From positions 64,001-128,000 of the forward strand of contig CAWAWS010000005.1 of assembly GCA_963785725.1 (NCBI GenBank): a DNA stretch of 64,000 nucleotides, read 5' to 3'. The DNA comes from an uncultured delta proteobacterium. Lineage in GTDB: Bacteria; Myxococcota_A; Polyangia; Palsa-1104. The notes beneath the pieces were generated by a model. The model was not told the DNA's origin. It was given only the letters and a program-made list of their open reading frames with translations, and made no database searches. The position numbers were made by a program, and so were the translations under genes. Below are positions 34,552-62,672 of the stretch, in pieces; position 1 is the first letter of the stretch, and every line of letters starts with the position of its first letter.

Positions 34552-34587
34552 TGCGCACGCTTTGAACAGTGCGCAACGATTGCGCCA
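34552..34587 (+). promoter_or_regulatory. Tandem copy of the recurrent TGCGCA-N3-WTCGNACAG motif (degenerate)
   Basis: TGCGCACGCTTTGAACAG TGCGCAACGATTGCGCCA. Confidence 0.45.
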
Positions 34588-34821
34588 CGCGCGATCGCGG
34601 CGGCGCAAGACGACCTGGCTTCAAGTGGCGCTCGCGAGCATGCAGCGCGCGCCAACGGGTGCGCCGCTGTCGCCGGCGTGATTCTCGACGGCGCCGCCGA
34701 CGGACCTACTGCGGCAGCGACGGGCCGCAGCTTGGGCGGAAAGCCCCGCGGCAGCTCACCGCGCTCGTCGAGCCAGCCGAAGCGTCGCGCTCAGCGCCAC
34801 TGGGACGCCGAGCGCGGCTCG

Positions 34822-35319
34822 TCAATTCCCCGCGCCCGCGTCGCCGGCGGCCGACGGACAGAGCTGCGTGTATTTCGGGCTGCACGACGGCAACGCGAAG
34901 GACGCCGGCCCGCCGACGCAGGAGAACGAGCGCTGAAAGCTCAGCTCGTAGACGGCGACGAGCTGCCCCGTAGCCGAGTCGTAGATGTAGTTGGTGCTGA
35001 CGTCGGCGTTGGTCTGTACGACGTTGACGTAGCTGCCGCAGGTCTGTTCCGACAACCCCGCTGCGCCGGCACACCAGCCCGGCCAGCTCGACGGCTGCTC
35101 GGCCTGCTTCAGCGTCGCGACACACTGCCCCCAAGACGCTTCGGGATGGGCACACCAGCTCGCCAACGACTGAGGGCAGCCGGCGAGATCGGCCGAGACG
35201 GCGAGATCGGCGACGCCGGAGAGGTCGGTCTTCGTCCCGACGTCGCTCAGATCGGGTGTCGTCGAGGTCGCACCGCACGCGCCAATCAGAAAGAGCATCG
35301 GGACCAACATGCTGCGCAT
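34822..35319 (-). CDS. Small Cys-rich lipoprotein
   Basis: LIGAC lipobox; several paired Cys. Confidence 0.6.
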   Translation of the reverse strand: MRSMLVPMLFLIGACGATSTTPDLSDVGTKTDLSGVADLAVSADLAGCPQSLASWCAHPEASWGQCVATLKQAEQPSSWPGWCAGAAGLSEQTCGSYVNVVQTNADVSTNYIYDSATGQLVAVYELSFQRSFSCVGGPASFALPSCSPKYTQLCPSAAGDAGAGN

Positions 35320-35395
35320 TTGACGAACTGTGCCGGCTTTTCGGCGTCGTCGCAATGACGCGGCTCACCGCGATCTCGGGGGCGAGCGACGAATG

Positions 35396-36721
35396 TCAGG
35401 GGTCCCAGGAAAGACCGAGCTCGACAAAGCCGCTCGAGCGCGACTTGAGCAACACGAAGTCGGGATAGGCGTAATAGAGATAATTGACTGCGATATCGAG
35501 GAGGATGCGCGTATCGCCGGGATAACGTGCCTGCCGGAGCACACGCGCCGCGCCGAAGTTGACGATATGTCCGAGCTCGCGACTCAGCTCTTTGTCGGAC
35601 GTGTAGTACGTATATCGATCGGGCGATAATAGATATTTCGAATGATAAAAGTCGGCGCCCGACTGTGCATAAAAACGATAGCCCAGTCGCACGCGCCATC
35701 CCGACGTGACCGCGCGCATCTCGGCGGCGGCCGCCAGGCTTTCGACACCCCAGTTGTCGATGCCGAGCCGGGCTTCGCCATGCAACGCCAATCCCTGCGT
35801 CAGCGAATGCACCCACTCGGCCACGGCCGCGTGGCGCACGCGCAGATTGGGCACCGTCTCGGGCAGCCCGTCCGCCGAGCCGATCGTGTTGGCGAACACG
35901 ATGCGCTGGTTCTCGCCGGTGCTCGTCGTCCAGTCGCCGAAGCGAACGTTGCGATAAGGCGAGCCTTGATAGCCGATCGCTGCCGCACCGTCGTAGCGCA
36001 GGCGCAGCGCGTCGTTGGGCGTGAGCACTTGGGCCAGTCCGGCGGTCCATCCGACTTCGCTCATCCGGCGCGCGAAGGTGCTGTCGAGGACGCTGCTAAT
36101 CCAATTGGCGGTGAACGTGAATCCGGCGAGCAACGTCATCGAGCGCTCCACTGCGTCGATCGATCCGTTGAGACCGCCGCTGACGCTGTTGTAGTCGCGC
36201 TCGTTGGCATACGCGGCCGACAGGTTGAAGGTGTGACCGCGACTGTCGTTCCAGCCCGAGCCCAGCGTTGCCGACAATCGGCGATCGGACATCTTGCCGC
36301 CCGACGTCGAGGTCGTCCCCGACGCGCTCGTCACCACGTCGACCTGGCTCAGCCCGGGCGAAGAGCGCACGTCGACCGAGGCGCTCGATACGACATCGAC
36401 GTCGGCGCTGCCGCTGATGGTCCAGCGTCCCACGCCGCCCGTCATCGCGGCCAGCGCGCGGAAGACGATGGTCTCGTCGCTGTCCGCGTAGAGCCCGAGC
36501 CGGCCGGCACCCGTCACCGGCGTCTTGGCCGGCGCCTCGCGACTGACCGCAGTGTCATCGACCTTGGCCGGCACGGGGCTCGACGGCGACGCCGGCTCGC
36601 GCGCGTCAGCGGCCGTCGCCGCCGCCGGGGCGCTCGGCGGACCGGCGGGCACACCTGATTCCTGCGCGCTCACCGAGGACGCCGCGACACACAAGGCGGC
36701 CACGAAGAGAGCGCGGGTCAA
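35396..36721 (-). CDS. DUF3570-family putative outer-membrane beta-barrel (copy 1)
   Basis: DVVSSAS/DVVTSAS, ERDY.S, GYQGSPYR, YRFYAQ..ADFY, TSDKELS; TTG start overlaps the DUF4266 stop. Confidence 0.8.
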   Translation of the reverse strand: MTRALFVAALCVAASSVSAQESGVPAGPPSAPAAATAADAREPASPSSPVPAKVDDTAVSREAPAKTPVTGAGRLGLYADSDETIVFRALAAMTGGVGRWTISGSADVDVVSSASVDVRSSPGLSQVDVVTSASGTTSTSGGKMSDRRLSATLGSGWNDSRGHTFNLSAAYANERDYNSVSGGLNGSIDAVERSMTLLAGFTFTANWISSVLDSTFARRMSEVGWTAGLAQVLTPNDALRLRYDGAAAIGYQGSPYRNVRFGDWTTSTGENQRIVFANTIGSADGLPETVPNLRVRHAAVAEWVHSLTQGLALHGEARLGIDNWGVESLAAAAEMRAVTSGWRVRLGYRFYAQSGADFYHSKYLLSPDRYTYYTSDKELSRELGHIVNFGAARVLRQARYPGDTRILLDIAVNYLYYAYPDFVLLKSRSSGFVELGLSWDP

Positions 36722-37128
36722 TGACAACCACAGCCGGCACCGGCGCTGCCCGGACCGGCGCTGGAGAAGGTCCCTCCCTCCGTGATGTCGAGGACGGAGT
36801 CGCGCTGGGCTTCGGAAAGCGGCGCCATTTGGAACTGCATCGCCGGGCTGGCCAGTCGTTCGCGTTGCCAGGGATGGACCCGCGCGCAGCCGGAGAGCGA
36901 AAGCCAACAGACGGCTGCCAATCCCCACACACGGCGCTGATGACGAGTCAGTGGGTTCCGCGTACGCCAAGGAAACGAGCTATTCAATCGAGGACCTCGA
37001 TCGTTAGTGCCGCGAAGCTTGCCTTTGAGACAAACGACGTTGCTTTTTGCAGCTAGAGACAAAGATGAGTGCCCAGGCGCACATTCAGCGACCGATGCCG
37101 ACGACCGCTTTGACGATTCCGGGATCAC
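36718..37128 (-). CDS. DUF4266-family small lipoprotein (copy 1); start uncertain
   Basis: LSGC-ARVHPWQRERLA..AM...GAGCGCH; the conserved part begins near 36935. Confidence 0.75.
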   Translation of the reverse strand: MIPESSKRSSASVAECAPGHSSLSLAAKSNVVCLKGKLRGTNDRGPRLNSSFPWRTRNPLTRHQRRVWGLAAVCWLSLSGCARVHPWQRERLASPAMQFQMAPLSEAQRDSVLDITEGGTFSSAGPGSAGAGCGCH

Positions 37129-37197
37129 CGTTGCTCTCCTCCTAACGGAGTTGCGTGAGGGTCACGCCGCAGGCTGGGCGACTGGCCGGTTCCACCA

Positions 37198-37213
37198 AGC
37201 AAGCTCGGAGCCA
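37198..37213 (-). promoter_or_regulatory. sigma54 promoter
   Basis: TGGCTCC-GAGC-TTGCT upstream of DUF4266/DUF3570 copy 1. Confidence 0.65.
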
Positions 37214-37303
37214 AAACGCGCGGCGGCTTGGTGGTCAATCGCGGCCCACATCGCGGCACGCCTGCCGGCGAGCGTCGAGCGTGACTGGCCGCACGCGCCG
37301 AGG

Positions 37304-37321
37304 TGCGCACGAATCGGACAG
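37304..37321 (+). promoter_or_regulatory. Recurrent enhancer-like motif
   Basis: TGCGCACGAATCGGACAG followed by a partial second copy TGCGCG. Confidence 0.6.
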
Positions 37322-37410
37322 TGCGCGGACGGCGGTCGCGACCGTTCGCAAAACACGCGGCTGCCGCTTGAATCCGCGGCCGAACCTGCGCATCGTGGAG
37401 GCTATCAAAA

Positions 37411-38031
37411 ATGCTTAAGCCTATCGTTGCCACGCTCGTCCTCCTCATCGCGACGTCGCCGCTCTTCGCCGAAGGCCCGCAAGACGCCAAGGCGCATTAC
37501 GAGCACGGCGTTTCGCTGTATGCGCTCGGCGACTACGCGGGCGCCGCCGATGAATACGAGAAGGCCTTCGCGCTCAAGTCCGATCCGGCGCTGCTCTACG
37601 ACGCCGCTCAGGCCCACCGACGCGCCGGCCACAACGCGCGTGCGCTCGCCCTTTACGAGAACTATCTCGCGCTCTTCGGCGATCAGGTGCCCAACCGCAA
37701 AGAGGTGCAGCGCAAGATCGAGGAGCTGCACGTCGCCGTCGAGGCCGAGCGCAAGGTGCAGACCTCGCCGCCGATGGAGCCGGTGCCGATGCAAGAGCAT
37801 GCGCCGGTGGAGACGGCGCCGCCGGCGGTCGTCGCCGTGCCGCAGGATTCGCTCACGACGACGCCACCCGCACCGCCGCCACCGCGGAGCCGCCGGCTGA
37901 CTTGGCTGCTCGTCGGCGCCGGCGCGGTCGTCGTCGTCGGTGTGGGGCTGGGTGTCGGGCTCGGCATCGGCCTCTCGAAGACCGTCGCGCCTTCGCCGTC
38001 TTTCGGCGCCGTCCCGGTGACCGCGAAATGA
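37411..38031 (+). CDS. TPR protein with signal peptide and C-terminal TM helix
   Basis: AKAHYEHG..LY.LGDY..A..EY..A...LLYDAAQA; Pro-rich linker; hydrophobic tail. Confidence 0.8.
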   Translation: MLKPIVATLVLLIATSPLFAEGPQDAKAHYEHGVSLYALGDYAGAADEYEKAFALKSDPALLYDAAQAHRRAGHNARALALYENYLALFGDQVPNRKEVQRKIEELHVAVEAERKVQTSPPMEPVPMQEHAPVETAPPAVVAVPQDSLTTTPPAPPPPRSRRLTWLLVGAGAVVVVGVGLGVGLGIGLSKTVAPSPSFGAVPVTAK

Positions 38032-50061: not shown

Positions 50062-50097
50062 TGGGCAACTTTCGAACAGTGCGCAGCAAACGGACAG
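50062..50097 (+). promoter_or_regulatory. Tandem recurrent enhancer-like motif
   Basis: TGGGCAACTTTCGAACAG TGCGCAGCAAACGGACAG. Confidence 0.6.
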
Positions 50098-50138: not shown

Positions 50139-50154
50139 TGGCATCGAGCTTGCT
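50139..50154 (+). promoter_or_regulatory. sigma54 promoter
   Basis: TGGCATC-GAGC-TTGCT. Confidence 0.75.
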
Positions 50155-50219: not shown

Positions 50220-51008
50220 CTGATTCCCTGGCTCAACTTGGACGTGCCTGTGCTCGCGGGATCGGCGGCGCCGTTCTGGATCCTCGTCGCGGTTGGCATC
50301 GCGTTGGGCACGAGGGCCAGCCTGCAGCGCGGCGACCAGCTCGGCCTGACCCACCCGCTCCGCTCGTTGCTGACCGCCGTCCTCGTCGGAGGATTCGTCT
50401 CGGCCCGGCTGCTCTATCTCGTCGCCGAACGACCGAGCGCGCAGCCCATGCGCTGGCTCGACCTCGTCGCGCCCGCGGGCCGACTGTCGTCATTCGGCGG
50501 ATTCGCAGGCGCCGTCGTGATGCTGCGTCGGTGGACACATCGGCGCCATCTGCCCGTCGCACCTTACGCCGACGCGCTCGCCGCGGGCTTCCCGCTCGGC
50601 TGGCTCTTCGGCCGCCTCGGCTGCTTCATCGCGCACGATCATCCCGGTCGACTGACCCACTTCTTCTTGGGCGTGCGCTATCCCGACGGCGTCCGTCATG
50701 ACCTCGGCCTCGACGAAGCGCTCTATGCCGCGACTATTGCCGTCATCTTTCGGCTACTCCAGCGTCGCGCCCGTCCGGTCGGCACCTATACGACCATTCT
50801 CATCGTCACTTATGCGCCCGTGCGGTTCGCGCTCGATTTCCTGCGCACGAGCGACGAGCGCTATCTCGGGCTGACGGTCGCGCAAGCCGGCTGCTTCCTG
50901 CTCTGGGCGGCGGCGATGTACCTGGTGACCGCGACGCTGTTGGCGATGACCGAAACCACAGCGCGGTCGCGATTGCAACCTGAAGATCGGAGTCGTGAAC
51001 AGTCTTGA
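50220..51008 (+). CDS. lgt: Prolipoprotein diacylglyceryl transferase (Lgt) paralog
   Basis: ARLLY, LSSFGG, GRLGCF..HDHPG, RH...E, RF..DFLR; start uncertain (CTG 50220 or TTG 50238). Confidence 0.8.
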   Translation: MIPWLNLDVPVLAGSAAPFWILVAVGIALGTRASLQRGDQLGLTHPLRSLLTAVLVGGFVSARLLYLVAERPSAQPMRWLDLVAPAGRLSSFGGFAGAVVMLRRWTHRRHLPVAPYADALAAGFPLGWLFGRLGCFIAHDHPGRLTHFFLGVRYPDGVRHDLGLDEALYAATIAVIFRLLQRRARPVGTYTTILIVTYAPVRFALDFLRTSDERYLGLTVAQAGCFLLWAAAMYLVTATLLAMTETTARSRLQPEDRSREQS

Positions 51009-51341
51009 GTGCTGTCTTTTTACTCGCCGATTCGCGCTATTTCGAGAACCCTCGATCGCCGCGCTACGTCTCACTCGCATGACGCCCAAACCGAGCCGCA
51101 CGCAGCTCATTCAATGGTCGCACTGGCTCTCTGAGCGTTCGGGCTGCTTGATCCACGGTCGGGACGCCAGTCACGCCTTCGTCGGCTGCGCGCCTACCGA
51201 CTCGGAAGAGCCGCGCATCGAATGCGGCCAATGCCAACACAATGGCAGACATACGCTGCTCTCTTTCTGGAACCGCGATCGCGATCAAGTGTTGGCCGAC
51301 TCGCGAACGGTCGATCGAAGTCAATGAACCGAGGAGGGCTC

Positions 51342-51611
51342 ATGTCGCACCCACGAGACCGCCCCGCGCCGAGCGCGTCCCGACGGCACTTCTGTCGCTG
51401 AGCGGCGCTGGCGTTCGAGGCCGGCGGTCTGTACGCCATCTCCGCCATCTGCACACATCAAGGCTGCACCGTAGACTTCGCGAGCGCGGCCAGCGGATTC
51501 CATCGTCCGTGCCACGGCTCCGTGTTCTCGTTCGATGGCCTCGTCGAAGGCGGACCGGCAACGGCCTCGCTGGTGCACTACGGCGTATCGCCCGACGATC
51601 GCCTCGCGTGA
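51342..51611 (+). pseudogene. Rieske [2Fe-2S] protein remnant
   Basis: GAGGAGG RBS, Tat-like SRRHF, in-frame TGA at 51399, then CTHQGC and RPCHGS (first Cys ligand changed to Arg). Confidence 0.7.
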
Positions 51612-52471
51612 CGGCGACGACGCGCGGCGAGCACGAGGAGCGGCAGCAGCAGCAGTATCGTCAGTGACCCGCGCGCCGGCGCGCCGCCCAACGCGCACGC
51701 CGCGCTGGCACCGGTCGGCACGCTCGCTCCCGCCTCTTGCAAGAAGAAGCTCGCCTGCGCGGTGTCGTCGCCGTACGGATTCTGATCATTCGCCGCGGTC
51801 CCAGCGCCGCCGTTGCCGTCGACGGCAGCGACGTAGACCGTGACCGGCCCGGTGCCGGCGGGCGGCGCCGTCCACCACAGGTGCCACGTGGTCGGCCCGT
51901 TGCGCACCACGAGCCGCGCGGTGTTGGCATCGAGCTGGCGATTGCCGAAGATGGCGTCGCCGTCCGGCGCGACCAAGGCCTCGTCGTTCGTCTGATCGGG
52001 CGCGGGGCAGACACCGGCGACCGGCGCCGCGGCGCAGAAGCCCTTCGTCAGCGGCGCGCCCGCGGCGTCCACCTCCAAGCCGAAGTTGTTGTTGTTGCAC
52101 TGCACGTAGCCGCTCGACGTGCCGGGCGGATCGGTGCAGGTGGGGCTGTTGTATTGCGTGCCCTTGGTCTCGTTCTTCAGCTGCACCTCGAGCTCGTACG
52201 TCTGCCCCGGCACGTAACCGCTCTGAAAGAGCGCCGGCTGATCGGCGGCCAGCTCGAGCCCGAGCGCGCGCGGCCCGTCGGTGTGGCAGCTGTTGCACGT
52301 CAGCGACGCGAAGCGCGGCGCGCCGGTGAAGTAGATGCCCTCGCCGCTCGCGCCGTAAGTCGCGCCGTGCGGCACCATCGGGTTGGCGAAGAACTGCGTG
52401 GCATCGTCGAAGGCGTGTGCTGCCGTCGGTAAGCCGAGGACGAAGAAGATCGCGATCCACTTAGAGCGCAA
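51578..52471 (-). CDS. Secreted CXXCH protein with Reeler-like domain and MYXO-CTERM-like tail
   Basis: Signal peptide, TCNSCH, YVPGQTY.L.V, WTAP..GTGPV..Y...V.GNG; C-terminal AC...LLLLPLLVLAARRRR. Confidence 0.7.
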   Translation of the reverse strand: MRSKWIAIFFVLGLPTAAHAFDDATQFFANPMVPHGATYGASGEGIYFTGAPRFASLTCNSCHTDGPRALGLELAADQPALFQSGYVPGQTYELEVQLKNETKGTQYNSPTCTDPPGTSSGYVQCNNNNFGLEVDAAGAPLTKGFCAAAPVAGVCPAPDQTNDEALVAPDGDAIFGNRQLDANTARLVVRNGPTTWHLWWTAPPAGTGPVTVYVAAVDGNGGAGTAANDQNPYGDDTAQASFFLQEAGASVPTGASAACALGGAPARGSLTILLLLPLLVLAARRRRHARRSSGDTP

Positions 52472-53782
52472 AGCCCACCTCCAGCGCGCCACCGAGCCAG
52501 TCATCGCCGGCCGAATGCGCAAAGCGCGTGCCGGCGCCGGCGAACGAGAGGCCGACGTGATCGTAGCCGCCGCTCAGCCGCAGCCACAGCCACGAGGTCA
52601 GCCACGACGTCGCCGACGCCGACGCCGACACGCCCCACGCCGACGCGGCGCCATATTGTGTCGTCGACGCGATGGCGCCGTCGTAAAGCACGCCGAGATA
52701 GCCGCCTCGCAGCGCCAGCACGGCATAGCGGCCGACGAGCGCGCGCTCCATCCGAGGCCGGCGGCGATGGCGTCGTAGCGGACATCGGGGACGCCGACGT
52801 CGACGGGCGCGGCGTGGCTCCAGCTCATGCGCTGCCAGCCGGTGTCGACGGTCAGCGTGCCGCCGGCGGATTCGTGACCGAGCGGGATGCGGCCGACGAG
52901 CAGCACGTTCCAGCGCGAGGCGCTGCCGGTCGACTTGCCAACCGCCGACGTCGACGTGAAGCCGAAGATGGACTCGTACAATCCCGAGAGGCCGAACGAC
53001 GCCAACACCGGATGGTCCTCGGCGAGCTCCGACGACAGCGCCAGCGGGAATACGGCGCCTTCGACGCGGATGCCGGCCACCGTGCCGCCGGCGTAGCGCG
53101 GCGCCGAGGCGACGTCGAAGCCGAGCCGGCGCGTCAAGAGCGACGGGCCGACGCCGCCGAACACGCCGGCCACCGCGCGCTTGGCCGCCGCCTGCTTGGC
53201 GATGCTGGTGTCACCGGCGACCGCGGGCGACACGTCTTCGACCGACGATGGCGCCGGCGACGACGACGCGCTCACGTCGGGCGGCGACTCGGCCGCGACC
53301 TCCGCCGGCGGCCGCGCGCGACCCATCGGCACGACGCGCTCGAGCGCGCGCACGAGGTCGGCCGCCACGCGCTCGCGAATGAGCGGCAGCGTGCGCCCGC
53401 CGAGCTCGTAACGTCCGCGCGCGATGACGCGGCCGCTCGAGCCTTCGCGCACGGCGACCAAGAGCAGCCGCTGGCGCCCCTGACCGACGACGGTGCCGCC
53501 GATGATGGCGTCGATGTGCAGCCTGAGCGCGACGGCGCGCACGTCTTCCGGCGAGGCGCCGCGCCGGCCCAACTGCTCGGCGACGCGGCGATAGTCGGCG
53601 CCCGGCACCAGCTCATACAGCTCGGTCAGCTCGGCTTCGAGCGCGCTCGAGAAGCGGCCGCCGTCGGGACCGCTGACGCCGAGCAGCGTCACCGTCTTGG
53701 CGGCGGCATCGACGCGCGCGCTCGCGGCCAGCGTCGCCGCCACGGCCAGCGCCGGCAGTAGTCGGCGGCTAATAAATGACAT
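52461..53782 (-). CDS. Putative outer-membrane protein (N-terminal alpha/beta domain + barrel), frameshifted near 52750
   Basis: Signal peptide; amphipathic strands; C-terminal GGALEVGFAL lies in the adjacent frame and one missing G joins them. Confidence 0.6.
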
Positions 53783-54854
53783 TGATGCCCGCTTCGATGT
53801 TGGCGCCGTCACGCGACGTCAAGAGCGCGAAGTCGAGGTACTTGAAATGGAAGTAGTCGACCTTGGCCTCGAGCTCGAGCGCGCGATGCACCCACGGCAG
53901 CCGCCACGACACCTTGGCGCCGACCAAGTTGGACCAAAAGGTCGACAGCTCGCGATCGGCGGTGACGAAGTTGCCGAAGCTCTCGGTCGTGTAGTGCGTC
54001 TGAAAGAAGCTGGCGCCCTTTTGAAAATAGAAGCGCTCGCGCAGCCGCAGGGTCACGTCGCCGAACGTGACGAAGTAGCGCAGCTGCATCGTCTGCGCCT
54101 GCACGCCCCAGTTGTCGGAGTAGAAGCGATAGTCCGCCTGCAACGCGGTATCGGTGAACAGGTGGCGATTGAGCGCGAGCACGACGGCGTGGCGATAGCG
54201 ATCGTTGGGATCGCTCTCCGGCACCTTGAACGCGATGCTGCTCGCGCCATTCGCCTCCGGATCTTCGATGCGCACGAAGCGATACGGGCTCGCTTGATAG
54301 CCGTCGTTGTACGCGAACGAATAGGACAGCTGCGCGATGGTGCGCCGGTCGATCACTTGGCTCCACGACGCCGAGACGCCGTTGACGAGGAGCGAGCGGT
54401 GAAAGAGCTGATCGCCGGTGCGTCCGACGCTGTTGGCGGACACCGAGTAGCCGACCGACAGCGTCGAGTTGCGCTCGAACAGGTCCTGCGCCAGCCCGAA
54501 GTCGACGTTGTGCGAGCGATAGTCGTTCTCGACCGAGTAGACGTAGCTCCCGGTGAGCGTCGTCGCGTGGAACTTCTGCGTCAGGCCGGCGGAGATCTCG
54601 CTGCGAAAGTCGGTCATGCGCTTGGTGGCGTTGCTGATGACGTCGACCGACGCCGAGCTGACGATGTCGGCGACGTAGCTGGCGGAGACGGTGCCGCCTT
54701 GCCAGGCGTCGCGCGAGATGGCCGTCAGCGGCGACACGACCGTCGTGCGATCGCTGTCGGTGTACACCTGCGTCTTGACCGTGAAGCTATCGTCGGCGTG
54801 AGCGGCGGCCGGCAGCGCCAGCGCCAAGGCGAGGACGGCGAATCTCAATTGCAT
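53769..54854 (-). CDS. DUF3570-family putative outer-membrane beta-barrel (copy 2)
   Basis: ADIVSSAS, ENDYRS, GYQASPYR, DYRFYSDNWGV, TADRELS. Confidence 0.85.
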   Translation of the reverse strand: MQLRFAVLALALALPAAAHADDSFTVKTQVYTDSDRTTVVSPLTAISRDAWQGGTVSASYVADIVSSASVDVISNATKRMTDFRSEISAGLTQKFHATTLTGSYVYSVENDYRSHNVDFGLAQDLFERNSTLSVGYSVSANSVGRTGDQLFHRSLLVNGVSASWSQVIDRRTIAQLSYSFAYNDGYQASPYRFVRIEDPEANGASSIAFKVPESDPNDRYRHAVVLALNRHLFTDTALQADYRFYSDNWGVQAQTMQLRYFVTFGDVTLRLRERFYFQKGASFFQTHYTTESFGNFVTADRELSTFWSNLVGAKVSWRLPWVHRALELEAKVDYFHFKYLDFALLTSRDGANIEAGINVIY

Positions 54855-55057
54855 CCGCAGCCGCCTCCAGCCGAGCCATAGCCGCCGACGGCACCTTCGC
54901 GCGCCTCGAGCATGTGCAGATCGAGGACGTCTTCGTGCGGGTCGGGCTGGAACGTCATCGTCGGCTTGGCCAAGAGCTCGCGCTCGTAAGGCTTGACGCG
55001 AACACAACCGGCGGCGCCCGAGAGCGCCAGAGCGAGAATTACGAAGCGCATCGTCAT
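54845..55057 (-). CDS. DUF4266-family small lipoprotein (copy 2)
   Basis: AAGC-VRVKPYERELLAKP.M...H...AREGA.GG.G.AGGGCGCN. Confidence 0.9.
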   Translation of the reverse strand: MTMRFVILALALSGAAGCVRVKPYERELLAKPTMTFQPDPHEDVLDLHMLEAREGAVGGYGSAGGGCGCN

Positions 55058-55620
55058 CGCGGCGTCAGCCCCATCATCGTGAAGACCGTCTGGCAGCTCG
55101 CGTCGACGGGGCTCGACTGCTTGGCGCCGCCGATCCACGCCACGAGCGCTTGCCAATCGGCGTCGTCGGTCAGCGTCGTCGCCGGATAGACCGGGAAGAT
55201 GCCGACGCCGTGATGCTCGGCGCCGCCGAAGCTGGCCTTGAGCGGCTTACCGAGCAGCGGAATGTGCTGCAGGTCGGGCTGCATGCGCTCGGCGGCGGTC
55301 GCGGCATAAAGCAGCCCGGAGACCGACTCGAAGTTGAGCTCGACCTCGGAGTCGGTCAGGCGCGCGTCGCGTCCATCGCGCGTGCCGTCGTCGGTCTGGC
55401 GCAGCTTGCCGGGCGAGTACAGCCGCAGCGCGTGGTCGGCGTTGCCGTGGCACGCGAGGTACGAGCAGCGCCGAATCAGCACCGGCTCGACCGTGCAGAC
55501 GAACTGGTTGTAGTCGAGGAAGGCGTCGGGCGAGCCGGTGGTCTGCAATCCTTGCGTGTGGTCGAGGCCGGGGCAGCCGGCGACCGTAGCCACGACGATG
55601 ACGGCGAACAGGCGATTCAC
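55054..55620 (-). CDS. Lipoprotein with CX4CH putative heme-binding motif
   Basis: VAGC lipobox; F...VEPVL.RRCSYLACHG; LL.KPL...H. Confidence 0.7.
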   Translation of the reverse strand: MNRLFAVIVVATVAGCPGLDHTQGLQTTGSPDAFLDYNQFVCTVEPVLIRRCSYLACHGNADHALRLYSPGKLRQTDDGTRDGRDARLTDSEVELNFESVSGLLYAATAAERMQPDLQHIPLLGKPLKASFGGAEHHGVGIFPVYPATTLTDDADWQALVAWIGGAKQSSPVDASCQTVFTMMGLTPR

Positions 55621-55673: not shown

Positions 55674-55689
55674 AGCAAACGGAGTGCCA
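55674..55689 (-). promoter_or_regulatory. sigma54 promoter
   Basis: TGGCACT-CCGT-TTGCT. Confidence 0.8.
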
Positions 55690-55719
55690 GCGACTGAGGC
55701 GCGCGACAGCAGTTTGCAG

Positions 55720-55737
55720 TGCGCAACGATCGTACAG
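55720..55737 (+). promoter_or_regulatory. Recurrent enhancer-like motif
   Basis: TGCGCAACGATCGTACAG between two divergent sigma54 promoters. Confidence 0.7.
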
Positions 55738-55910: not shown

Positions 55911-55926
55911 TGGCACCGCGCTTGCT
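55911..55926 (+). promoter_or_regulatory. sigma54 promoter
   Basis: TGGCACC-GCGC-TTGCT. Confidence 0.8.
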
Positions 55927-55939
55927 CGGTCGGCGAACC

Positions 55940-56698
55940 ATGCGCGATGACTCGAAATGCGCCACTTGCCTCGATCGGCGCGCCTTTGTCGCGGCCGCCG
56001 GCGTCGGGGCGCTGGCGCTGGCGCTTCCCGGCTGCGAAGCGCCGACGACCGCGGGACGCATTTCCGAAGGCCCCATCGATCCGACCACGGGCGGAACCGG
56101 CGGCAACGGCAACGGCGGCGGAGACACCGCCGGTGGCGGCGGCAGCGCCGGCGGTGAAGCGGGCGGCGGCGGCAGCGCCGGTGGCGGCGGAACCGCGGGC
56201 GGTGGCGGCGAAGCGGGCGGCGGCGGAACTGCGGGCGGCGGCGGAACTGCCGGTGGCGGTGGAACCGCCGGCGGCGGCGGAAGCGCGGGCGGCGGCGGAG
56301 CCGCGGGCGGCGGCGGAACTGCCGGTGGCGGCGGCAGCGCGCCCACTTGCACGCCGGGCACGCTCGCCGCGGGCGCCGCGTCGAGCTACACCGTGGGCAC
56401 GGCCAAGAGCTTCAGCAACGCCATCAGCTCCGGCGGCCAAAAGTACACGATCTTCGTCGCCAAGGACGCCAACGGCTTTTACGCGATGGACTCGGACTGC
56501 ACGCACGCCGGCTGCCCGGTCGCGTCGCAAGGCACCACGTACTACTGCAACTGCCACGGCGCCACCTTCGACGCCAACGGCAAGCACACCGGCGGCCCGG
56601 GCAGCGGTTATTTGCAGCATTACACCGTCTGCGTCGACGCCAGCGGCAACGTCACCGTCGACATCGACAGTCAGGCGACGCCGACGCAGCGCTTCTGA
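55940..56698 (+). CDS. Tat-exported Rieske [2Fe-2S] lipoprotein with long Gly-rich linker
   Basis: DRRAFV Tat motif, LPGC lipobox, CTHAGC and CNCHGA boxes. Confidence 0.88.
   Translation: MRDDSKCATCLDRRAFVAAAGVGALALALPGCEAPTTAGRISEGPIDPTTGGTGGNGNGGGDTAGGGGSAGGEAGGGGSAGGGGTAGGGGEAGGGGTAGGGGTAGGGGTAGGGGSAGGGGAAGGGGTAGGGGSAPTCTPGTLAAGAASSYTVGTAKSFSNAISSGGQKYTIFVAKDANGFYAMDSDCTHAGCPVASQGTTYYCNCHGATFDANGKHTGGPGSGYLQHYTVCVDASGNVTVDIDSQATPTQRF
56130..56340 (+). repeat. Coding 18-bp tandem repeat (GGGG(S/T/E/A)A)n
   Basis: Repeated GGCGGCGGCGGAACCGCG-like units inside the Rieske gene. Confidence 0.8.
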
Positions 56699-56707
56699 CC
56701 GGGCGCC

Positions 56708-56953
56708 CTATTCGACCCGCGTGTGCGTGGCGTCCCAGACGATCTGCAGGCCGGCGAACTTGCGCAGCCGATCGCGCACGCTCACTTTGCCTTCGATGAT
56801 CTCGTCGGCGAGATCGGGCGCGAGGAACGACGGCGGATCCTGCCGCAGCGCCAGCTCGTCGGCGCGCGTGAGATAGAGCGCGATCGGCGCTTGGCGGTGG
56901 GTTCCGATATACGCGTCCTTGAGCGCCCGCACGCGCCTCTCGAATTCCGTCAT
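56708..56953 (-). CDS. Small hypothetical protein
   Basis: MTEFERRVRALK...; sigma54-like GGGAATG-GCGC-TTGCT at 56984-56999 upstream. Confidence 0.55.
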   Translation of the reverse strand: MTEFERRVRALKDAYIGTHRQAPIALYLTRADELALRQDPPSFLAPDLADEIIEGKVSVRDRLRKFAGLQIVWDATHTRVE

Positions 56954-57040
56954 CTCGCGTCCGCGTCCAAGCGCCAAGAGCGGAGCAAGCGCCATTCCCA
57001 GCCCGAGAGCGCGGCAGACCGGGCAGCCGCAGCGGCCAGC

Positions 57041-57078
57041 TGCGCAACGTTCGAACAGAGCGCGCAACGATCGTACAA
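57041..57078 (+). promoter_or_regulatory. Tandem recurrent enhancer-like motif
   Basis: TGCGCAACGTTCGAACAG-AG-CGCGCAACGATCGTACAA. Confidence 0.7.
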
Positions 57079-57355: not shown

Positions 57356-57562
57356 ATGATGAAGCTCGCACTCCTTGTCACTTTCGTCTCCACCACCGTC
57401 GGTTGCGCCACCGTCAAACCTTGGCAGCGCGAGAGCCTGGCGCAGCCGGGCATGAGCCTCGACGCCACGCCCAGCGCCGCCGCCGAGCAGCACATGCTCG
57501 AGTCGCGCGAGGCGTCCGTCGGCGGCTTCGGCGGCGCCGGCGGCGGTTGCGGCTGTAACTGA
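57356..57562 (+). CDS. DUF4266-family small lipoprotein (copy 3)
   Basis: TVGC-ATVKPWQRESLA.P.M...H...SREAS.GG.GGAGGGCGCN. Confidence 0.9.
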   Translation: MMKLALLVTFVSTTVGCATVKPWQRESLAQPGMSLDATPSAAAEQHMLESREASVGGFGGAGGGCGCN

Positions 57563-57563
57563 G

Positions 57564-57745
57564 AACCCCAGGCTTCGCCTCGATTGAGCAGGCGAGGGCG
57601 AGGCGTGTGAGTCGGATCGTGGATGCGACCACAGCGACCGACCGAGGAATACTGTCCGTATTTCGACCGAGGGAGCGCGGACGTAGTCCGCGAGGCGGCC
57701 GCACGCATCGTCCGTAGCGGATCGATCGAGGCGAACCCTGGGGTT
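57564..57745. mobile_element. MITE-like/structured intergenic element with 24-bp terminal inverted repeats
   Basis: Left end AACCCCAGGCTTCGCCTCGATTGA vs reverse complement of right end AACCCCAGGGTTCGCCTCGATCGA (22/24); internal hairpins; flanked by AG on both sides. Confidence 0.65.
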
Positions 57746-58976
57746 AGAAGCGCCCGGTGGCCGACAGCGCCAGCACGAGCGCGCTGGCGAAGCCGCGGGT
57801 GCGCGCGGCGTTGGGCGGCTCGGGCGAGAGCGCGAAGATCTTGACGTAGTCGGCGCCGAGGCTCCATTCGACCTCGGTGAACATGCGCCAACGCCGCTTG
57901 TCCGGCGAAAAGCGGCTGTCGTGGACGAAGCGCGCGCCGAGGAGCAGGTCGGCGATCGGCGCCAGCTCCTGGTCGGCCGTGAAATAGCGGCCCACCGGCC
58001 CGGCGCGCTCGTAGGAGTCGGCCCAGCCGACGTCGCGGTAGAAGCTGGCGCTCGACTGCACGTAGCCGCGAGCGCGCGCCACGTAGCGCCACGCGGGCGC
58101 GCTCAGCTTGAGCGGCTGCTCCCAGCTGACCTCGCCGGTGATCGCTTGGACGCCCCAGGTGTCGCGATAGAGCCGCAGGTTGCCGCCGAGCGTCGCCCGG
58201 AGCGACGGCAAGGCGTAGCGGACGCGGGCGGTGACGGCGCCGCGGTCGCGCAGCCGCGGATGCGACTCTTGCGCCTGCATGAAGCCGTCGTCGAGACGCA
58301 CGCGGCGGTAAGGGCTCGACTGAAAGCCGTCCGCGTGCTGCCACGTGCCGCTGAGGCCGCCGAGCAGATGCGCCGTCAGCGACTGCACCACCCCGACTTC
58401 GAGGTCGTCGAGGTCGAGCCGCTCCTCGGTCAGCGCGGCCACGCCGGCGAAGCAGCCACGCGAGCTGTCGAGCGGCTGCCGCAGCGTCAGCGCCACGCCG
58501 GGCTGATTGAGGTCGCAGATGCTGTCGAAGCTGTGGCTGTAATCGACGGTGAGGATGGTGTTGTGCTGCGCGAGGTCGAGCGTGAGCCCGCCGCGGATGA
58601 GGTGCGAGCGATAGTCGCTCTCGGTGCCGTAGCCGTAGCCGGCGCGAAACGTCGCCGGCCCGGCGGTGGCCGCGGCGCCGCCGCCGATGACGTTGCGCAC
58701 CTCCGAGAAGCGGGTCGCGGCGCTGACGACGTCGGGCGAGCCGTACGTGCGCGGCGTGGCGCCGGTGACGATGTCGGCGCTCCAGTTGACGTCGAACAGG
58801 AGCCAAGGCTTCGCGTGGACCTTGCCGGACACGGACGGCGTGATGACCACCAGCGCATCCGACGACGCCGGCTGGACGAAGACGCGCAGATCGGCGTTGG
58901 CCTCGCCCCGCTCTTGCGCGGCCGCGGTCGCGACGACGAGCGTGACGAGCGCAGCGACGACGGCAGCGCGGATCAC
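57744..58976 (-). CDS. DUF3570-family putative outer-membrane beta-barrel (copy 3)
   Basis: ADIVTGAT/DVVSAAT, ESDYRS, GFQSSPYR, RLYRDTWGV, TADQELA. Confidence 0.8.
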   Translation of the reverse strand: MIRAAVVAALVTLVVATAAAQERGEANADLRVFVQPASSDALVVITPSVSGKVHAKPWLLFDVNWSADIVTGATPRTYGSPDVVSAATRFSEVRNVIGGGAAATAGPATFRAGYGYGTESDYRSHLIRGGLTLDLAQHNTILTVDYSHSFDSICDLNQPGVALTLRQPLDSSRGCFAGVAALTEERLDLDDLEVGVVQSLTAHLLGGLSGTWQHADGFQSSPYRRVRLDDGFMQAQESHPRLRDRGAVTARVRYALPSLRATLGGNLRLYRDTWGVQAITGEVSWEQPLKLSAPAWRYVARARGYVQSSASFYRDVGWADSYERAGPVGRYFTADQELAPIADLLLGARFVHDSRFSPDKRRWRMFTEVEWSLGADYVKIFALSPEPPNAARTRGFASALVLALSATGRF

Positions 58977-59398
58977 GGCGTCACCCAATCCTCGATGACG
59001 CTCGCCGCCGTCGCGCGATCGAGGACGACCGGCCCGGGCGGATGCAGGTTCGACTGACCTTCGGGCACCGTCAAGAGGCGACTCGCGAGCGGCTCATCGC
59101 AGCGCACGAGCTGCAGCGCGGACAGATAGTTCTCGCGCCAGCCGAGCGGCCAGGCGGCGAGCGGCGTGCCTGCCGCCGGCGCGGCCTCGGGTGGACGCAG
59201 CCGCAGGTAGCCGTGCCCGTCGTCGAAGGCGTGGCAGCCGCGCGTGCTGCAGCGGTTGGCCTCCAGATAACGCGGCCAGACTTCGCTGACGAAGATATCA
59301 GGGCTGGCCGCGCAGGCGCCCGCGTCCGGCACGGTCCCGGCATCGACCGTGCAGGCTGCGCCAGTCATGAGCGCCAACATCGCCAGACGTCGCCACAT
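58973..59398 (-). CDS. Lipoprotein with CX4CH putative heme-binding motif
   Basis: GAAC lipobox; F...VWP.YL..NRCSTRGCH; SRLL..P...H. Confidence 0.7.
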   Translation of the reverse strand: MWRRLAMLALMTGAACTVDAGTVPDAGACAASPDIFVSEVWPRYLEANRCSTRGCHAFDDGHGYLRLRPPEAAPAAGTPLAAWPLGWRENYLSALQLVRCDEPLASRLLTVPEGQSNLHPPGPVVLDRATAASVIEDWVTP

Positions 59399-59446
59399 CG
59401 TCGCAGCCGATCTATGCAGCCGCGCCGGCGTGTCTACAAAGCAGTC

Positions 59447-59950
59447 ATGAGCGAGCGGCGAGCCAGCGTGAGCGTCCGGCCTATTGAGCCGGCGGATCGA
59501 GCCTTTCGCGTGTCGACCAGCGGACGTGGTCACCCGAGCGATTGCACGCGGCGCCTCTTCAACCTGGCCGTGTGCGGCCTCGGCGCCGAGCTCTTGGCCT
59601 GTGGCAGCGCGACGACCGTGCTGACGCCCACCGCCGACCGGGTGACGCTGACCTACGCGCAGTTCCCGGCGCTCGCCCAGGCCGGCGGCAGCGCCGTCGT
59701 CGACGTCGCCGGCGGTTTCCCGCTGGTCGTCGTGCGCACCGGCGACGCCACCGCGGTGGCGCTGAGCGCCACCTGCACGCACGCCGGCTGCATCCTGCGC
59801 TACGAGCCGAGCGCGTCCGACCTTCACTGCGACTGCCACGGCGCCAACTTCAGCCTGGGCGGCGCCGTCTTGCACGGACCGGCGACCATCCCGCTGCCGC
59901 TGTATGCCGCCACGACCGGCGCCGACGCCATCACCGTCGACCTCGCCTGA
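59447..59950 (+). CDS. Tat-exported Rieske [2Fe-2S] lipoprotein
   Basis: TRRLF Tat motif, LLAC lipobox, CTHAGC and CDCHGA; start uncertain. Confidence 0.85.
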   Translation: MSERRASVSVRPIEPADRAFRVSTSGRGHPSDCTRRLFNLAVCGLGAELLACGSATTVLTPTADRVTLTYAQFPALAQAGGSAVVDVAGGFPLVVVRTGDATAVALSATCTHAGCILRYEPSASDLHCDCHGANFSLGGAVLHGPATIPLPLYAATTGADAITVDLA

Positions 59951-59966
59951 GCCGGCATCGACGCCG

Positions 59967-61199
59967 CTAGGACGCGTCTTGCAGCAGCTTGAGCAGCTCT
60001 TCGGGACTGACGAAGCGGTCGATCTTGTGCACCTGCTTGCCGTCGGCGCTGACCAGCACCAGCGTCGGTAGCGTCTCCGCGTTCCAGTGCGCTTTGGCCG
60101 CCGCCACCGCCGGATCGTCGTCGTTCGTGCAGTTGACCTTCACCAGCGTGAAGTGACCGAGCGCGCGCGCCACTTCGGTGCGGCTGAACGTCTTGAGCTC
60201 CAGCTCTTTGCACGGCAGACACCAGTCGGCATAGAAGTCGAGCAGCACCGGCTTGTGCAGCGCGCGCGCCAGCTTGAGCCCTTCGTCCTCGCCGTGCACC
60301 CAGGTCAGCACCGGCGCGCCCGCTTCCAGCTTGGGCGCCAAGATGCCGCCGATGACGCCGAACAGGCCGACCACCACGACGCCGACCGAGAGCGCCTTGC
60401 GCAGCTTGACCACCGTCGTGTCGTGAAACGACAGATGCACCGCGCCGAGCGCCAGGCCGGCCGCCGCCACCGCGCCGCAGCCGACGAGCCACAGCGTCGA
60501 CGGGCGGCCGATGGCGCGCAAGGGCGCGATCACGTTGCGCAGGAAGTACAGCGCGCCCACGAGCATGACGATGCCGAAGACGCTCTTGACCGCCTCCATC
60601 CACGCGCCCGACTTGGGCAGCGCGACGGCGAAAGCGGCGATGGCGAAGAAGAGCACGCCCATGCCGAGCGCGTAGGTGACGAGCAGCGAGCCGCCGAGCA
60701 GCACCGACTTCGTCGTCGCCACGAACGCCAAGATCGAGGCCAACACCGGGCCGGTGCAAGGCGCGGCGATGATGCCGCCGACGAGGCCCATCGCGAAGGC
60801 GCCGAAGAAGCCCTTGCCGCCGACCGAGGTCAGCTTCTGCTGCAGCTCCGACGGCAGGCTGAGCTCGAAGGCGCCGAACATCGACACCGCCATGATGACG
60901 AAGAGGGTCGCGATCGGCACCATGACCCACGGGTTGGCCATGAACGTGCCGAACGCCTTGCCGGCCAGCGCCGAGCCGACGCCGAGCGCCGCGTACATGA
61001 CGCCGATGCCGCCCACGTACAGCGACGCCAGCGCCATGGCGCGGCGGCGCGGCACGTCGTCGCCGCGCGCGCCGAAGAGCGACACCGTGATCGGGATGAG
61101 CGGATACACGCACGGCGTCAGCGACGTCAGAAAGCCGCCGACGAAGACGCTCGCGTAGGCCCACAGCCAGCCGTGCGCGAACAGCGCGCCGCCGTTCAC
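59967..61199 (-). CDS. DsbD/CcdA-family disulfide reductase with C-terminal thioredoxin domain
   Basis: SLTPCVYPLIP and AAPCTGP TM cysteines; DFYADWCLPCK; no N-terminal alpha domain. Confidence 0.9.
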   Translation of the reverse strand: MNGGALFAHGWLWAYASVFVGGFLTSLTPCVYPLIPITVSLFGARGDDVPRRRAMALASLYVGGIGVMYAALGVGSALAGKAFGTFMANPWVMVPIATLFVIMAVSMFGAFELSLPSELQQKLTSVGGKGFFGAFAMGLVGGIIAAPCTGPVLASILAFVATTKSVLLGGSLLVTYALGMGVLFFAIAAFAVALPKSGAWMEAVKSVFGIVMLVGALYFLRNVIAPLRAIGRPSTLWLVGCGAVAAAGLALGAVHLSFHDTTVVKLRKALSVGVVVVGLFGVIGGILAPKLEAGAPVLTWVHGEDEGLKLARALHKPVLLDFYADWCLPCKELELKTFSRTEVARALGHFTLVKVNCTNDDDPAVAAAKAHWNAETLPTLVLVSADGKQVHKIDRFVSPEELLKLLQDAS

Positions 61200-61690
61200 T
61201 GGTTCACCAGCGCCAACAGCTGCGCCTCGAGCTTGGACTCGTCGCCGGGCTCGAAGCCGCCGTTGATGGCGCGCACGACGCCGCGCTTGTCGATGACATA
61301 GGACGACGGCATCTTCGGCGGCTCCCAGCGACCGACGATCTTCTTGCCGCCGTCGTTGATGACGGTCAGGCGGATGCCCTTGGCGCGCAGGAAATCCTCG
61401 GCGTTCTTGCGATCGTCGTCGATGTTGACGGCGACGATCTCGACGCCCTTTTGCTTCAGGCGCGGCGCCAGCTGCGACAACAGCGGCAGCTCCTTCTTGC
61501 ACGGCTCGCACCACGAGGCCCAGAAGTCGAGCAGCACCACCTTGCCGCGCAGCGACGACAGCTTGAGCGGCTGCTGGGTCAGCGTCGCCGACTCGAAGTC
61601 GGGCGCGGCCTGGCCCGGCTTGACCTCCGCGAACGCCGACAGTGGGCCAAAGAGCGCGACTACGAGGGCGAGCCTGGAAACGAGCTGCAT
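61196..61690 (-). CDS. TlpA/ResA-family thioredoxin
   Basis: Signal peptide, APDF, GKVVLLDFWASWCEPC, MPSSYVID. Confidence 0.92.
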   Translation of the reverse strand: MQLVSRLALVVALFGPLSAFAEVKPGQAAPDFESATLTQQPLKLSSLRGKVVLLDFWASWCEPCKKELPLLSQLAPRLKQKGVEIVAVNIDDDRKNAEDFLRAKGIRLTVINDGGKKIVGRWEPPKMPSSYVIDKRGVVRAINGGFEPGDESKLEAQLLALVNQ

Positions 61691-61713
61691 GAATCCTCCT
61701 GCGCTGCGGCATT

Positions 61714-61729
61714 AGCAAGCCGGGCGCCA
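61714..61729 (-). promoter_or_regulatory. sigma54 promoter of the TlpA-DsbD genes
   Basis: TGGCGCC-CGGC-TTGCT. Confidence 0.75.
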
Positions 61730-61902
61730 CGTGAGCTGGGCGTCGTCGCCGCCGTTTTACGACCGCGCGCGACCGCCGATCTCGCTGGCAACGCTGCCGA
61801 TCGCGCGGCTTGCAAACTCGGACGCGCAGCGCTGGGTGCGCAGTCACCGGGGCGCCCTGCCGCGCTCGCGCGACGACGAGGCGGGCGGCAGCCGTCGCCA
61901 CG

Positions 61903-61939
61903 CTGTTCGCGCGCTGCGCAACTGTTCGAATCCTGCGCA
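61903..61939 (-). promoter_or_regulatory. Tandem recurrent enhancer-like motif (reverse orientation)
   Basis: Minus strand TGCGCAGGATTCGAACAG-T-TGCGCAGCGCGCGAACAG. Confidence 0.7.
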
Positions 61940-61949
61940 GCGACGAGAG

Positions 61950-62558
61950 CTACGGCGTGAGCGTCGTCAGCTGAAACGAGGTCGGCAGAGCAGCCAGCAC
62001 CGCGGGAACGAGCGCGCTGTTGTAGCCGTTGCCGAGGCGGATGCAGTCGTCGTCGCCGTCGACGACCGCCTGATCGAAGTCGACGCCGGCGAACCAAGCA
62101 GCGACGTCGATGGTGACGGCGAAATGGATGGTCTGACCGGCGGTGAGCTCGCGGCCGGACGACGCGCGCAGATCGGCCACCACGTCGTCGTCGTCGTCGC
62201 GATCGACGAGGTCGACGACCAGCGAACGGCCGCGCCACTCGCCGCTGACCTGGAGCGACTGGACGGAGAAGCGCAAGCGGCTGTAGACGCCTTGCGGCAG
62301 GCCATCCATCGTCAGCGGCGTCGCCGGCGTGAGCGCGTTCACGGCGACATCGGGCAGCATGTAGCCGGGCGCCGCCTGCACGTCGCCGAAGAGCGACAGA
62401 TCCTCGAGCACGAGCGCGGCGCTGTCGACGGTGAGCGGCCCCGACGGCAGCGGCTGCGTGGCGAACGCGACCGCGACCGACCCCGTGGACTGAGCCGGCG
62501 CCGACGCGCCACCGCCGCAGCCGGCGACCAGCAGCAGCAAAGTCCAGCACGACTTCAT
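61950..62558 (-). CDS. Lipoprotein (beta-sandwich-like)
   Basis: MKSCWTLLLLVAGC lipobox. Confidence 0.65.
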   Translation of the reverse strand: MKSCWTLLLLVAGCGGGASAPAQSTGSVAVAFATQPLPSGPLTVDSAALVLEDLSLFGDVQAAPGYMLPDVAVNALTPATPLTMDGLPQGVYSRLRFSVQSLQVSGEWRGRSLVVDLVDRDDDDDVVADLRASSGRELTAGQTIHFAVTIDVAAWFAGVDFDQAVVDGDDDCIRLGNGYNSALVPAVLAALPTSFQLTTLTP

Positions 62559-62571
62559 GGGGCACCCATGC

Positions 62572-62587
62572 AGCAACGGCAATGCCA
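62572..62587 (-). promoter_or_regulatory. sigma54 promoter
   Basis: TGGCATT-GCCG-TTGCT. Confidence 0.75.
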
Positions 62588-62626
62588 AACGGAAGACGGC
62601 GCCGCGCGCGCTAAGTTCTGGCCAAC

Positions 62627-62672
62627 TGCGCACGGATCGTACAGTTGTACAGCCGCTCGCCGATCGTAGAAT
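62627..62672 (+). promoter_or_regulatory. Recurrent motif abutting a sigma70-like promoter of the bEBP gene
   Basis: TGCGCACGGATCGTACAG (62627-62644), then TTGTAC-16bp-TAGAAT (62645-62672). Confidence 0.6.

Follow-up and report, generated by a model that had tools for sequence, protein, structure and literature searches.

An 18-bp intergenic motif as the probable enhancer of an FHA-domain sigma54 activator serving envelope redox genes in an uncultured myxococcotal bacterium

The window analyzed here is a 64,000-nucleotide stretch of the genome of an uncultured delta proteobacterium of the Myxococcota (G000:C5:64001-128000; all coordinates are in window numbering), in which copies of an 18-bp motif recur between genes over 28 kb. 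Our analysis makes it probable that this motif, TGCGCA-N3-WTCGWACAS, is the enhancer through which the bacterial enhancer-binding protein (bEBP) encoded at 62681, a sigma54 activator with an FHA domain, controls an envelope redox module that is restricted to one bacterial family. Sequence comparisons suggest that the 62681 protein itself binds the site. The original prediction, made from the letters of the window, had envisaged one co-regulated system over the entire 28 kb. This is too wide, since no site-linked sigma54 box serves the genes from 37.4 to 50 kb or the block of DUF4266b, DUF3570c, and Rieske-B. The putative regulon comprises eight linked promoters.

All 10 of the predicted motif copies were found at their positions (Table 1), and the gene caller placed nine of them in intergenic DNA, with 61903 lying within the same gap as 61922. 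Relative to the search pattern TGCGCA-N3-WTCGNACAG, five copies are exact (37304, 55720, 57041, 62627, and, on the minus strand, 61922), three have one mismatch (34552, 50062, and 50080), and two have two mismatches (57061 and, on the minus strand, 61903); the tandem pairs have periods of 18, 20, and 19 bp. When up to one mismatch was allowed, the pattern matched eight times (seven forward, one reverse) in the 8.9-Mb, 88%-complete genome, 19.5% of which is intergenic, and thus equaled the window copies in number and strands. All eight of these genome matches fall within the region analyzed; the reversed pattern, used as a control, gave one match in the whole genome. With leave-one-locus-out matrices, scored over both strands (17.8 million positions), 5 of the 10 held-out sites were outscored by no nontraining position, and the remaining five were outscored by 2, 3, 6, 9, and 17 such positions.

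TGCGCA is palindromic, tandem copies can pair with each other, and some copies lie at the 3' ends of genes, features that would suit a small dispersed repeat or an RNA hairpin (like a repetitive extragenic palindrome or a terminator) with no protein reader. However, folding z-scores at seven loci on both strands ranged only from -1.5 to +1.4, the copies are confined to one region, and what is conserved is the sequence, not the pairing. Neither a stable hairpin nor dispersal through the genome was found, and this most improbable of the explanations considered was rejected.

Using a sigma54 matrix derived from 125 boxes that all lie outside the window region and agreeing in consensus with the one in the accessible text of PMC9765219, we found a sigma54 box 31 to 193 bp from the motif at seven of seven loci (eight boxes in total; 9.3 to 18.7 bits). 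As background, boxes scoring at least 8 bits were present at 8.9% of 2,817 random intergenic positions. The copies other than 34552 had been expected to lie near such boxes, and they do, but the exemption of 34552 did not hold, as this copy also has one. The pair at 57041 and 57061 faces a weak box for an 81-amino-acid open reading frame (ORF) rather than DUF4266 at 57356. If the boxes are right, several targets (55940 and 62558) would be nearly leaderless.

Conservation was examined in 14 genomes of the same family. With the CX4CH protein as the query, the operon was found in 11 of these 14 genomes, in 1 of 4 genomes of a second family, and in 0 of 23 genomes of a third, and the site lies upstream of a conserved Rieske-(TlpA-DsbD)-CX4CH-DUF4266-DUF3570 operon in 9 of the 14. 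In unseeded Gibbs sampling of 11 Rieske-upstream regions from nine relatives, the motif came out on top; nine of the regions have good copies, and the two second-copy operons have none. The run omitted both G000 operons as well as five loci at contig ends or with a different gene order (G005:C200, G011:C551, G012:C547, G014:C134, and G017:C282). On the matrix built from its 11 picks, which hold no G000 sequence, the window sites ranked 1, 2, 3, 5, 20, 28, 33, 42, and 401 of 17.8 million positions, and 61903 scored below 9 bits. A 27-site matrix, also from relatives only, gave seven window sites genome ranks 1 to 7, a result that is partly circular because its sites were first located with the window pattern; here, 34552 ranked 18th, and 61903, a weak copy, scored below 12 bits. 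The top copy, 55720, ranked first on both relative-derived matrices. A sigma54 box of at least 8 bits accompanies 19 of 28 sites in relatives, mostly on the TGCGCA side. When 400 further genomes from across the phylum were sampled, the tandem pattern was present in only two (G448 and G248), with no regulon gene beside either; the motif is therefore close to family restricted. In metagenomes, we found 39 tandem-pattern loci with 33 distinct contexts. Homologues of the operon or of the activator-kinase cassette accompany 21 of the 39 loci, or 15 when kinase-only and bEBP-only loci are left aside, compared with 2 of 80 controls.

The 62681 protein carries FHA (PF00498), AAA+ (PF00158), and Fis-type helix-turn-helix (HTH; PF02954) domains and has the features of a bEBP, with GAFTGA, the Walker A and B motifs, and the arginine finger intact. 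Its HTH matches the structures of ZraR and Fis, and its recognition helix reads SRRMLIYK (SRRALLYK in paralogues). With its C-terminal 100 amino acids as the query, 12 other genes scored at least 87.7 bits, and the next match scored 74.7 bits. Eleven of these 12 matches lie in 9 of the 14 family genomes, the same 9 that have the site-bearing operon. On the window matrix, the best site scored at least 17 bits at 8 of the 11 activator loci and 16.4 to 16.8 bits at the other 3, whereas none of 80 unrelated activator loci, which had been returned by a query with the whole bEBP and were reused as negative controls, reached 17 bits (maximum, 16.5). The activators at the 11 loci, where read, have the helix SRR[AMT]L[ILVQ]YK, and operon copies for which the fetched stretch contained no SRRxLxYK activator (G000:C17, G002:C2, G003:C105, and G017) showed no strong site. 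These comparisons support the view that the site tracks the SRRxLxYK activator subfamily rather than the target genes. Among the G000 bEBPs compared, only 62681 has an SRRxLxYK helix, the nearest others being SHRALLYK (contig C14) and SRRALYDK (contig C26). Adjacency of the copies to 62681 would by itself prove little, because G000 has 84 Sigma54_activat matches, corresponding to roughly 60 to 65 full genes. Conservation of the site before orthologues, its tracking of the subfamily, and a helix found in no other G000 bEBP compared nevertheless argue for the predicted role of the site as the enhancer of this bEBP. The 62681 gene apparently starts at CTG, and its orthologues start at GTG or ATG.

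In a quick tree, the SRRxLxYK activators form two sister groups, type A (including 62681) and type B. Type B activators, which have the same helix and their own kinase cassette, were seen in each of the four same-genus genomes as well as in G010 and G012, mostly beside the core operon, and they form one clade (SH-aLRT [Shimodaira-Hasegawa-like approximate likelihood ratio test] support, 99). With the genome only 88% complete, a type B gene could hide in its unassembled part and encode the true activator, or types A and B could share the sites as homo- or hetero-oligomers. We regard this as unlikely: tblastn detected no type B activator in the G000 assembly (the next-best bEBP is 51% identical and has a different helix), only type A was seen in G006, G013, and G014, where sites are present nonetheless, and the G000 type A gene occupies the place beside TlpA-DsbD that type B holds in G003. 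Slightly less likely still is that 62681 is merely a neighbor and that the site is read by the C14 bEBP, the C26 bEBP, or a factor that is not a bEBP. The many activator-family matches in G000, a few with similar helices, leave room for such a reader, but no site of at least 13 bits lies in the 14 kb around the C14 or C26 bEBPs, the occurrence of sites goes with the A/B subfamily both between genomes and between paralogous operon copies, and the phylum-wide sample had the tandem site in just those two genomes.

We compared the motif with known activator sites. The NtrC site has a 17-bp TG...CA dyad frame, and this frame is common to the window motif and to NtrC-, ZraR-, and Fis-type sites; the halves of the window motif are, however, asymmetric (TGCGCA versus TGTWCG), and the recognition-helix residues differ. 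A likeness was also found to Escherichia coli AtoC, a sigma54 activator whose helix, SRRALMYK, matches the SRRxLxYK of the 62681 protein. The experimentally verified 40-bp AtoC site (PMC3118216) contains TTTGCACAG-TGCGCAATTTTC (sequence from NC_000913.3). This site, at atoDAEB, shares with the window motif the TGCGCA-N3-WTC half, the ACAG-TGCGCA junction, and a position about 80 bp before a sigma54 box, and the 15-bp AtoC core has two best matches in the genome, one of them at window position 34562. The two systems also differ. In AtoC, a receiver domain goes with a histidine kinase; in 62681, an FHA domain goes with a Ser/Thr kinase. The 40 bp of the AtoC site form an inverted pair, while the window copies are directly repeated in tandem and have their outer half nearer by one base. 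The AtoC targets are unrelated to those in the window. Furthermore, 62681 is not an AtoC orthologue (326.9 bits against an NCBIfam cutoff of 714) and falls outside the AtoC clade in the quick tree. This partial likeness lends modest support to 62681 as the reader of the site. A match with three mismatches to one AtoC half-site was also seen at C26:144778. Myxococcus xanthus Nla28, according to the accessible text of PMC9765219, reads an 8-bp repeat, CT(C/G)CG(C/G)AG, mostly at intragenic promoters. Like the window system, Nla28 is a myxobacterial sigma54 activator with clustered tandem sites, but the window site is an 18-bp intergenic element serving a small, local envelope redox regulon. In the literature searched on FHA activators and Myxococcota sigma54 regulons, from which subscription papers were mostly absent, nothing on this site was found.

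Several observations weigh against assigning the site to 62681 and the module to the site. The 14 relatives are kin and hence nonindependent samples. Against the window matrix, the AtoC site stays below 8 bits owing to a one-base displacement of its outer half, and with the full 20-bp AtoC half-sites as queries, the window does not stand out. The twelfth C-terminal match, in G035, has the same helix and no site on its 7.4-kb contig. In G003, G013, and G014, the lipoprotein gene has sites at its 3' end, but no sigma54 box lies within 260 bp of them, and 18 of the 39 metagenome loci lack any cassette or operon homologue. Individual targets are also in doubt: no site was found upstream of lgt at 14 loci in 12 relatives, where the best scores fall inside coding sequence, so that the predicted membership of lgt in the regulon is not borne out there; the trxB orthologue of G000 has no upstream site; and the SRPBCC-like target of 34552 was not found in the 14 relatives. 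The electron transfer role of the module is a suggestion from its gene families. Finally, activator sites usually lie 80 to 150 bp from the promoter, a distance that permits looping, and four of the eight promoters are only 31 to 62 bp from the site. Gaps this short (31, 40, 42 to 60, and 42 to 62 bp in the window; 28 to 66 bp at several sites in relatives) could mean that the same protein is mainly a repressor or roadblock at sites 31 to 62 bp from the -24 element and activates only from the distant sites (91 to 193 bp). This arrangement has, in our estimation, a low probability, marginally below that of a different reader: sigma54 promoters require an activator, the Gibbs runs showed no other conserved noncoding motif, and 55720 has a promoter at 174 bp as well.

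Comparison with relatives separates a conserved core, comprising Rieske A, TlpA-DsbD, the operon CX4CH-DUF4266-DUF3570b-OM404-anchor V, and the 62558 lipoprotein, from lgt, the 81-amino-acid ORF, DUF3570a, and the SRPBCC-like gene, which are probably strain-specific recruits or neighbors of relic sites. The 34552 copy lies about 840 bp past DUF3570a and may be a relic or co-opted, because the corresponding place in G010 carries paired sites for a dihaem gene that G000 lacks. Dihaem lipoproteins lie downstream of sites in G002 and G010. At 15 trxB loci, an upstream site was present only in G002 and G004; in G013, trxB adjoins the operon, with sites just downstream of trxB, at the operon promoter. 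Sites before trxB and dihaem lipoprotein genes in relatives fit a role in envelope electron supply. At two loci (L129:9270-9300 and L132:9940-9960), the boxes before dihaem lipoprotein genes have TTGA, not TTGC, at -12 in both genomes.

Table 1. Motif copies, sigma54 boxes, and genes of the window
Feature	Position	Strand	Remarks
SRPBCC-like gene, possible 34552 target	33610..34251	-	label from sequence; below family cutoffs; weak ScyC match
Sigma54 box of SRPBCC-like gene and KASIII/TPP-enzyme operon	34427..34442	-	9.7 bits, 110 bp from 34552
Motif copy, 1 mismatch	34552..34569	+	weak tandem partner at 34570-34587
DUF3570a	35396..36652	-	Pfam PF12094
DUF4266a lipoprotein, C-terminal CGC	36718..37128	-	Pfam PF14086
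Sigma54 box of DUF4266a-DUF3570a	37198..37213	-	12.7 bits, 91 bp from site
Motif copy, exact	37304..37321	+	
Tandem motif pair, period 18	50062..50097	+	
Sigma54 box of lgt paralogue	50139..50154	+	13.3 bits, 42-60 bp from sites
Second lgt (prolipoprotein diacylglyceryl transferase) paralogue	50250..51008	+	Pfam PF01790; further copy on contig C16
Choice-of-anchor V protein, CxxCH, C-terminal Cys/hydrophobic/Arg-rich tail	51578..52471	-	NCBIfam NF041895 above cutoff
OM404, conserved unknown secreted core-operon protein	52598..53743	-	frameshift near end; 52598-53812 affected
DUF3570b, predicted 16-strand outer-membrane barrel	53769..54854	-	
DUF4266 of core operon	54845..55057	-	Pfam PF14086
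CX4CH lipoprotein	55054..55620	-	C52, C57, H58 invariant across 14 sequences
Sigma54 box of CX4CH-DUF4266-DUF3570b operon	55674..55689	-	18.7 bits, 31 bp from site
Motif copy, exact	55720..55737	+	flanked by two divergent sigma54 boxes
Sigma54 box of Rieske A	55911..55926	+	17.6 bits, 174 bp from site
Rieske A lipoprotein, Gly-rich linker	55940..56698	+	Pfam PF00355
81-amino-acid unknown ORF, apparent target of 57041/57061	56708..56953	-	
Weak sigma54 box, poor -24 element	56984..56999	-	9.3 bits
Tandem motif pair, period 20	57041..57078	+	
DsbD-type membrane domain + thioredoxin domain fusion	59967..61199	-	Pfam PF02683, PF13899
TlpA/ResA-like thioredoxin, WCEPC	61196..61690	-	
Sigma54 box of TlpA-DsbD	61714..61729	-	15.2 bits, 174-193 bp from sites
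Tandem motif pair, period 19	61903..61939	-	61922 exact, 61903 weak
Unknown lipoprotein (62558)	61950..62558	-	homologues head-to-head with bEBP in relatives
Sigma54 box of 62558 lipoprotein	62572..62587	-	14.1 bits, 40 bp from site
Motif copy, exact	62627..62644	+	abuts sigma70-like TTGTAC-16-TAGAAT before bEBP gene
FHA-AAA+-Fis-HTH sigma54 activator	62681..64000	+	stop codon 6 bases beyond window end

The gene content of the module recalls a system for which Meheust et al. 2021 (PMC8238504) proposed extracytosolic electron transfer and which, as far as the text of that paper was available, is a cluster of DsbD, a thioredoxin-like protein, DUF4266 (CxC), and DUF3570; hundreds of genomes have such clusters, whose function is called uncertain there. 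The window clusters the same four families. Its core differs from the flavinylation system of that paper, in the portion seen, by having no apbE, by adding Rieske, CX4CH, and CxxCH proteins, and by a core DUF3570b without canonical [S/T]GA[S/T] motifs. No apbE was found among the window and downstream ORFs scanned, and the single G000 copy (C25:41793) has no site. In place of a pair of [S/T]GA[S/T] motifs, DUF3570b has SSAS and SNAT, DUF3570a has SSAS and TSAS, and DUF3570c has one TGAT and SAAT. The structure model of DUF3570b is a 16-strand barrel (mean predicted local distance difference test [pLDDT] score, 81) whose matches are generic porins. The model of the CX4CH protein has low confidence (mean pLDDT, 63) and had no VIA-align match at a Z score of at least 2. 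Atlas neighbors for two window proteins were mostly from Myxococcota. The clusters that the atlas returned were all unnamed ones of this phylum; for the CX4CH protein, there was a weak lead to PSCyt1 (16% of members), and for the 62558 lipoprotein, one to DUF4382/MbnP. The literature passages found name no regulator or DNA site for DUF3570/DUF4266 systems, and the supplements of PMC8238504 might list clusters of the present kind.

Further loci with related genes or sites were noted. A second Rieske-CX4CH-DUF3570 operon in G000 (L141, G000:C17:109786-114450) is 63 to 81% identical to that of the window and has a different bEBP 3 kb away. Its sigma54 box is weak, and some 80 bp upstream there is a palindromic site in degenerate form. 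Another DUF3570c-like cluster lies beside two bEBP genes (L227, G000:C26:142000-148000). At five metagenomic loci (L159, L173, L175, L179, and L183), a tandem motif lies about 400 to 500 bp upstream of csbD, and three of the five have, farther on, a gene for a rhodanese or a cytochrome c-rhodanese; these loci possibly represent another lineage with a similar site. At eight loci of yet another lineage (L160, L163, L171, L172, L177, L181, L182, and L189), the tandem site lies between a kinase gene and genes for lipoproteins with Gly/Thr linkers, and a conserved GGCACG-N4-CTGCA box follows the tandem site in the four of these loci that were read.

Elsewhere in the window, a broken third Rieske gene (51339-51620, plus strand) downstream of lgt has an in-frame stop and has lost a Cys ligand, through either decay or an assembly error. 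A row of SRPBCC-like, KASIII-like, thiamine pyrophosphate (TPP) enzyme, MarR/OhrR, methyltransferase, and P450 genes (27964-34251, minus strand) is possibly a small biosynthetic cluster. In the region 6061-15359 (plus strand), a phosphoketolase gene precedes an operon for an ATP synthase whose genes run beta, epsilon, gene 1, a, b, alpha, and gamma, an order that we take to be that of N-ATPase-type operons. The KASIII-like gene (32600-33610, minus strand) is frameshifted, as is OM404, and several bEBP genes elsewhere in G000 are split; the assembly therefore holds many indels, and single-base differences need caution because of these frameshifts.

Beyond the window end, the bEBP gene is followed by a convergent Kelch lipoprotein gene, a linker protein gene, and a divergent gene for a membrane Ser/Thr kinase. 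In relatives, type A and type B activators are again accompanied by Kelch and kinase genes, and the site often lies just past the kinase gene. FHA domains that bind phosphothreonine share the residue set GR, SxxH, and NG, and in the 62681 protein these residues are intact (GR47, SREH62, and NGT84). Because of this and because the kinase gene is conserved in the cassette, the Ser/Thr kinase appears to be the most likely input to 62681. Jelsbak et al. are said to have proposed in 2005 that the FHA-bearing activators of M. xanthus are linked to Ser/Thr kinases.

In the mechanism that we propose, an envelope cue would activate the membrane kinase, and phosphothreonine would be read by the FHA domain with an activating or an inhibiting outcome. 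Activator dimers on the 17-bp pseudopalindrome, often as tandem pairs 18 to 20 bp apart, would open the flanking sigma54 promoters. Electrons would then move from cytoplasmic thioredoxin to DsbD, on to TlpA, and from there to the CxC lipoprotein DUF4266, the Rieske protein, the haem-motif lipoproteins, and the DUF3570 outer-membrane barrel. The 62627 copy, which abuts the sigma70-like promoter of the activator gene, may repress that gene. Such autorepression is plausible but would not be general, because sites at the equivalent place were present in G002 and G006 and not seen there in G003, G013, and G014.

As a mechanism type, a sigma54 enhancer is ordinary. What the system would offer is a helix-to-site match common to AtoC and 62681 and a compact setting for learning how Ser/Thr kinases control FHA-bearing sigma54 activators. 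With a defined site, an activator, and a candidate kinase, the inducing condition of DUF3570/DUF4266/DsbD clusters becomes testable. More speculatively, and in our judgment with a minority chance of being correct, a Ser/Thr kinase-FHA-sigma54 relay may control an ApbE-independent, porin-based electron conduit in uncultured soil Myxococcota, in which TrxB, DsbD, and TlpA would feed CxC, Rieske, noncanonical CX4CH haem, and dihaem lipoproteins around the DUF3570 barrel. If this is true, DUF3570/DUF4266 systems would gain a defined regulator and an inducing pathway, and the site of an FHA-bEBP would be defined, along with a recognition code resembling that of AtoC.

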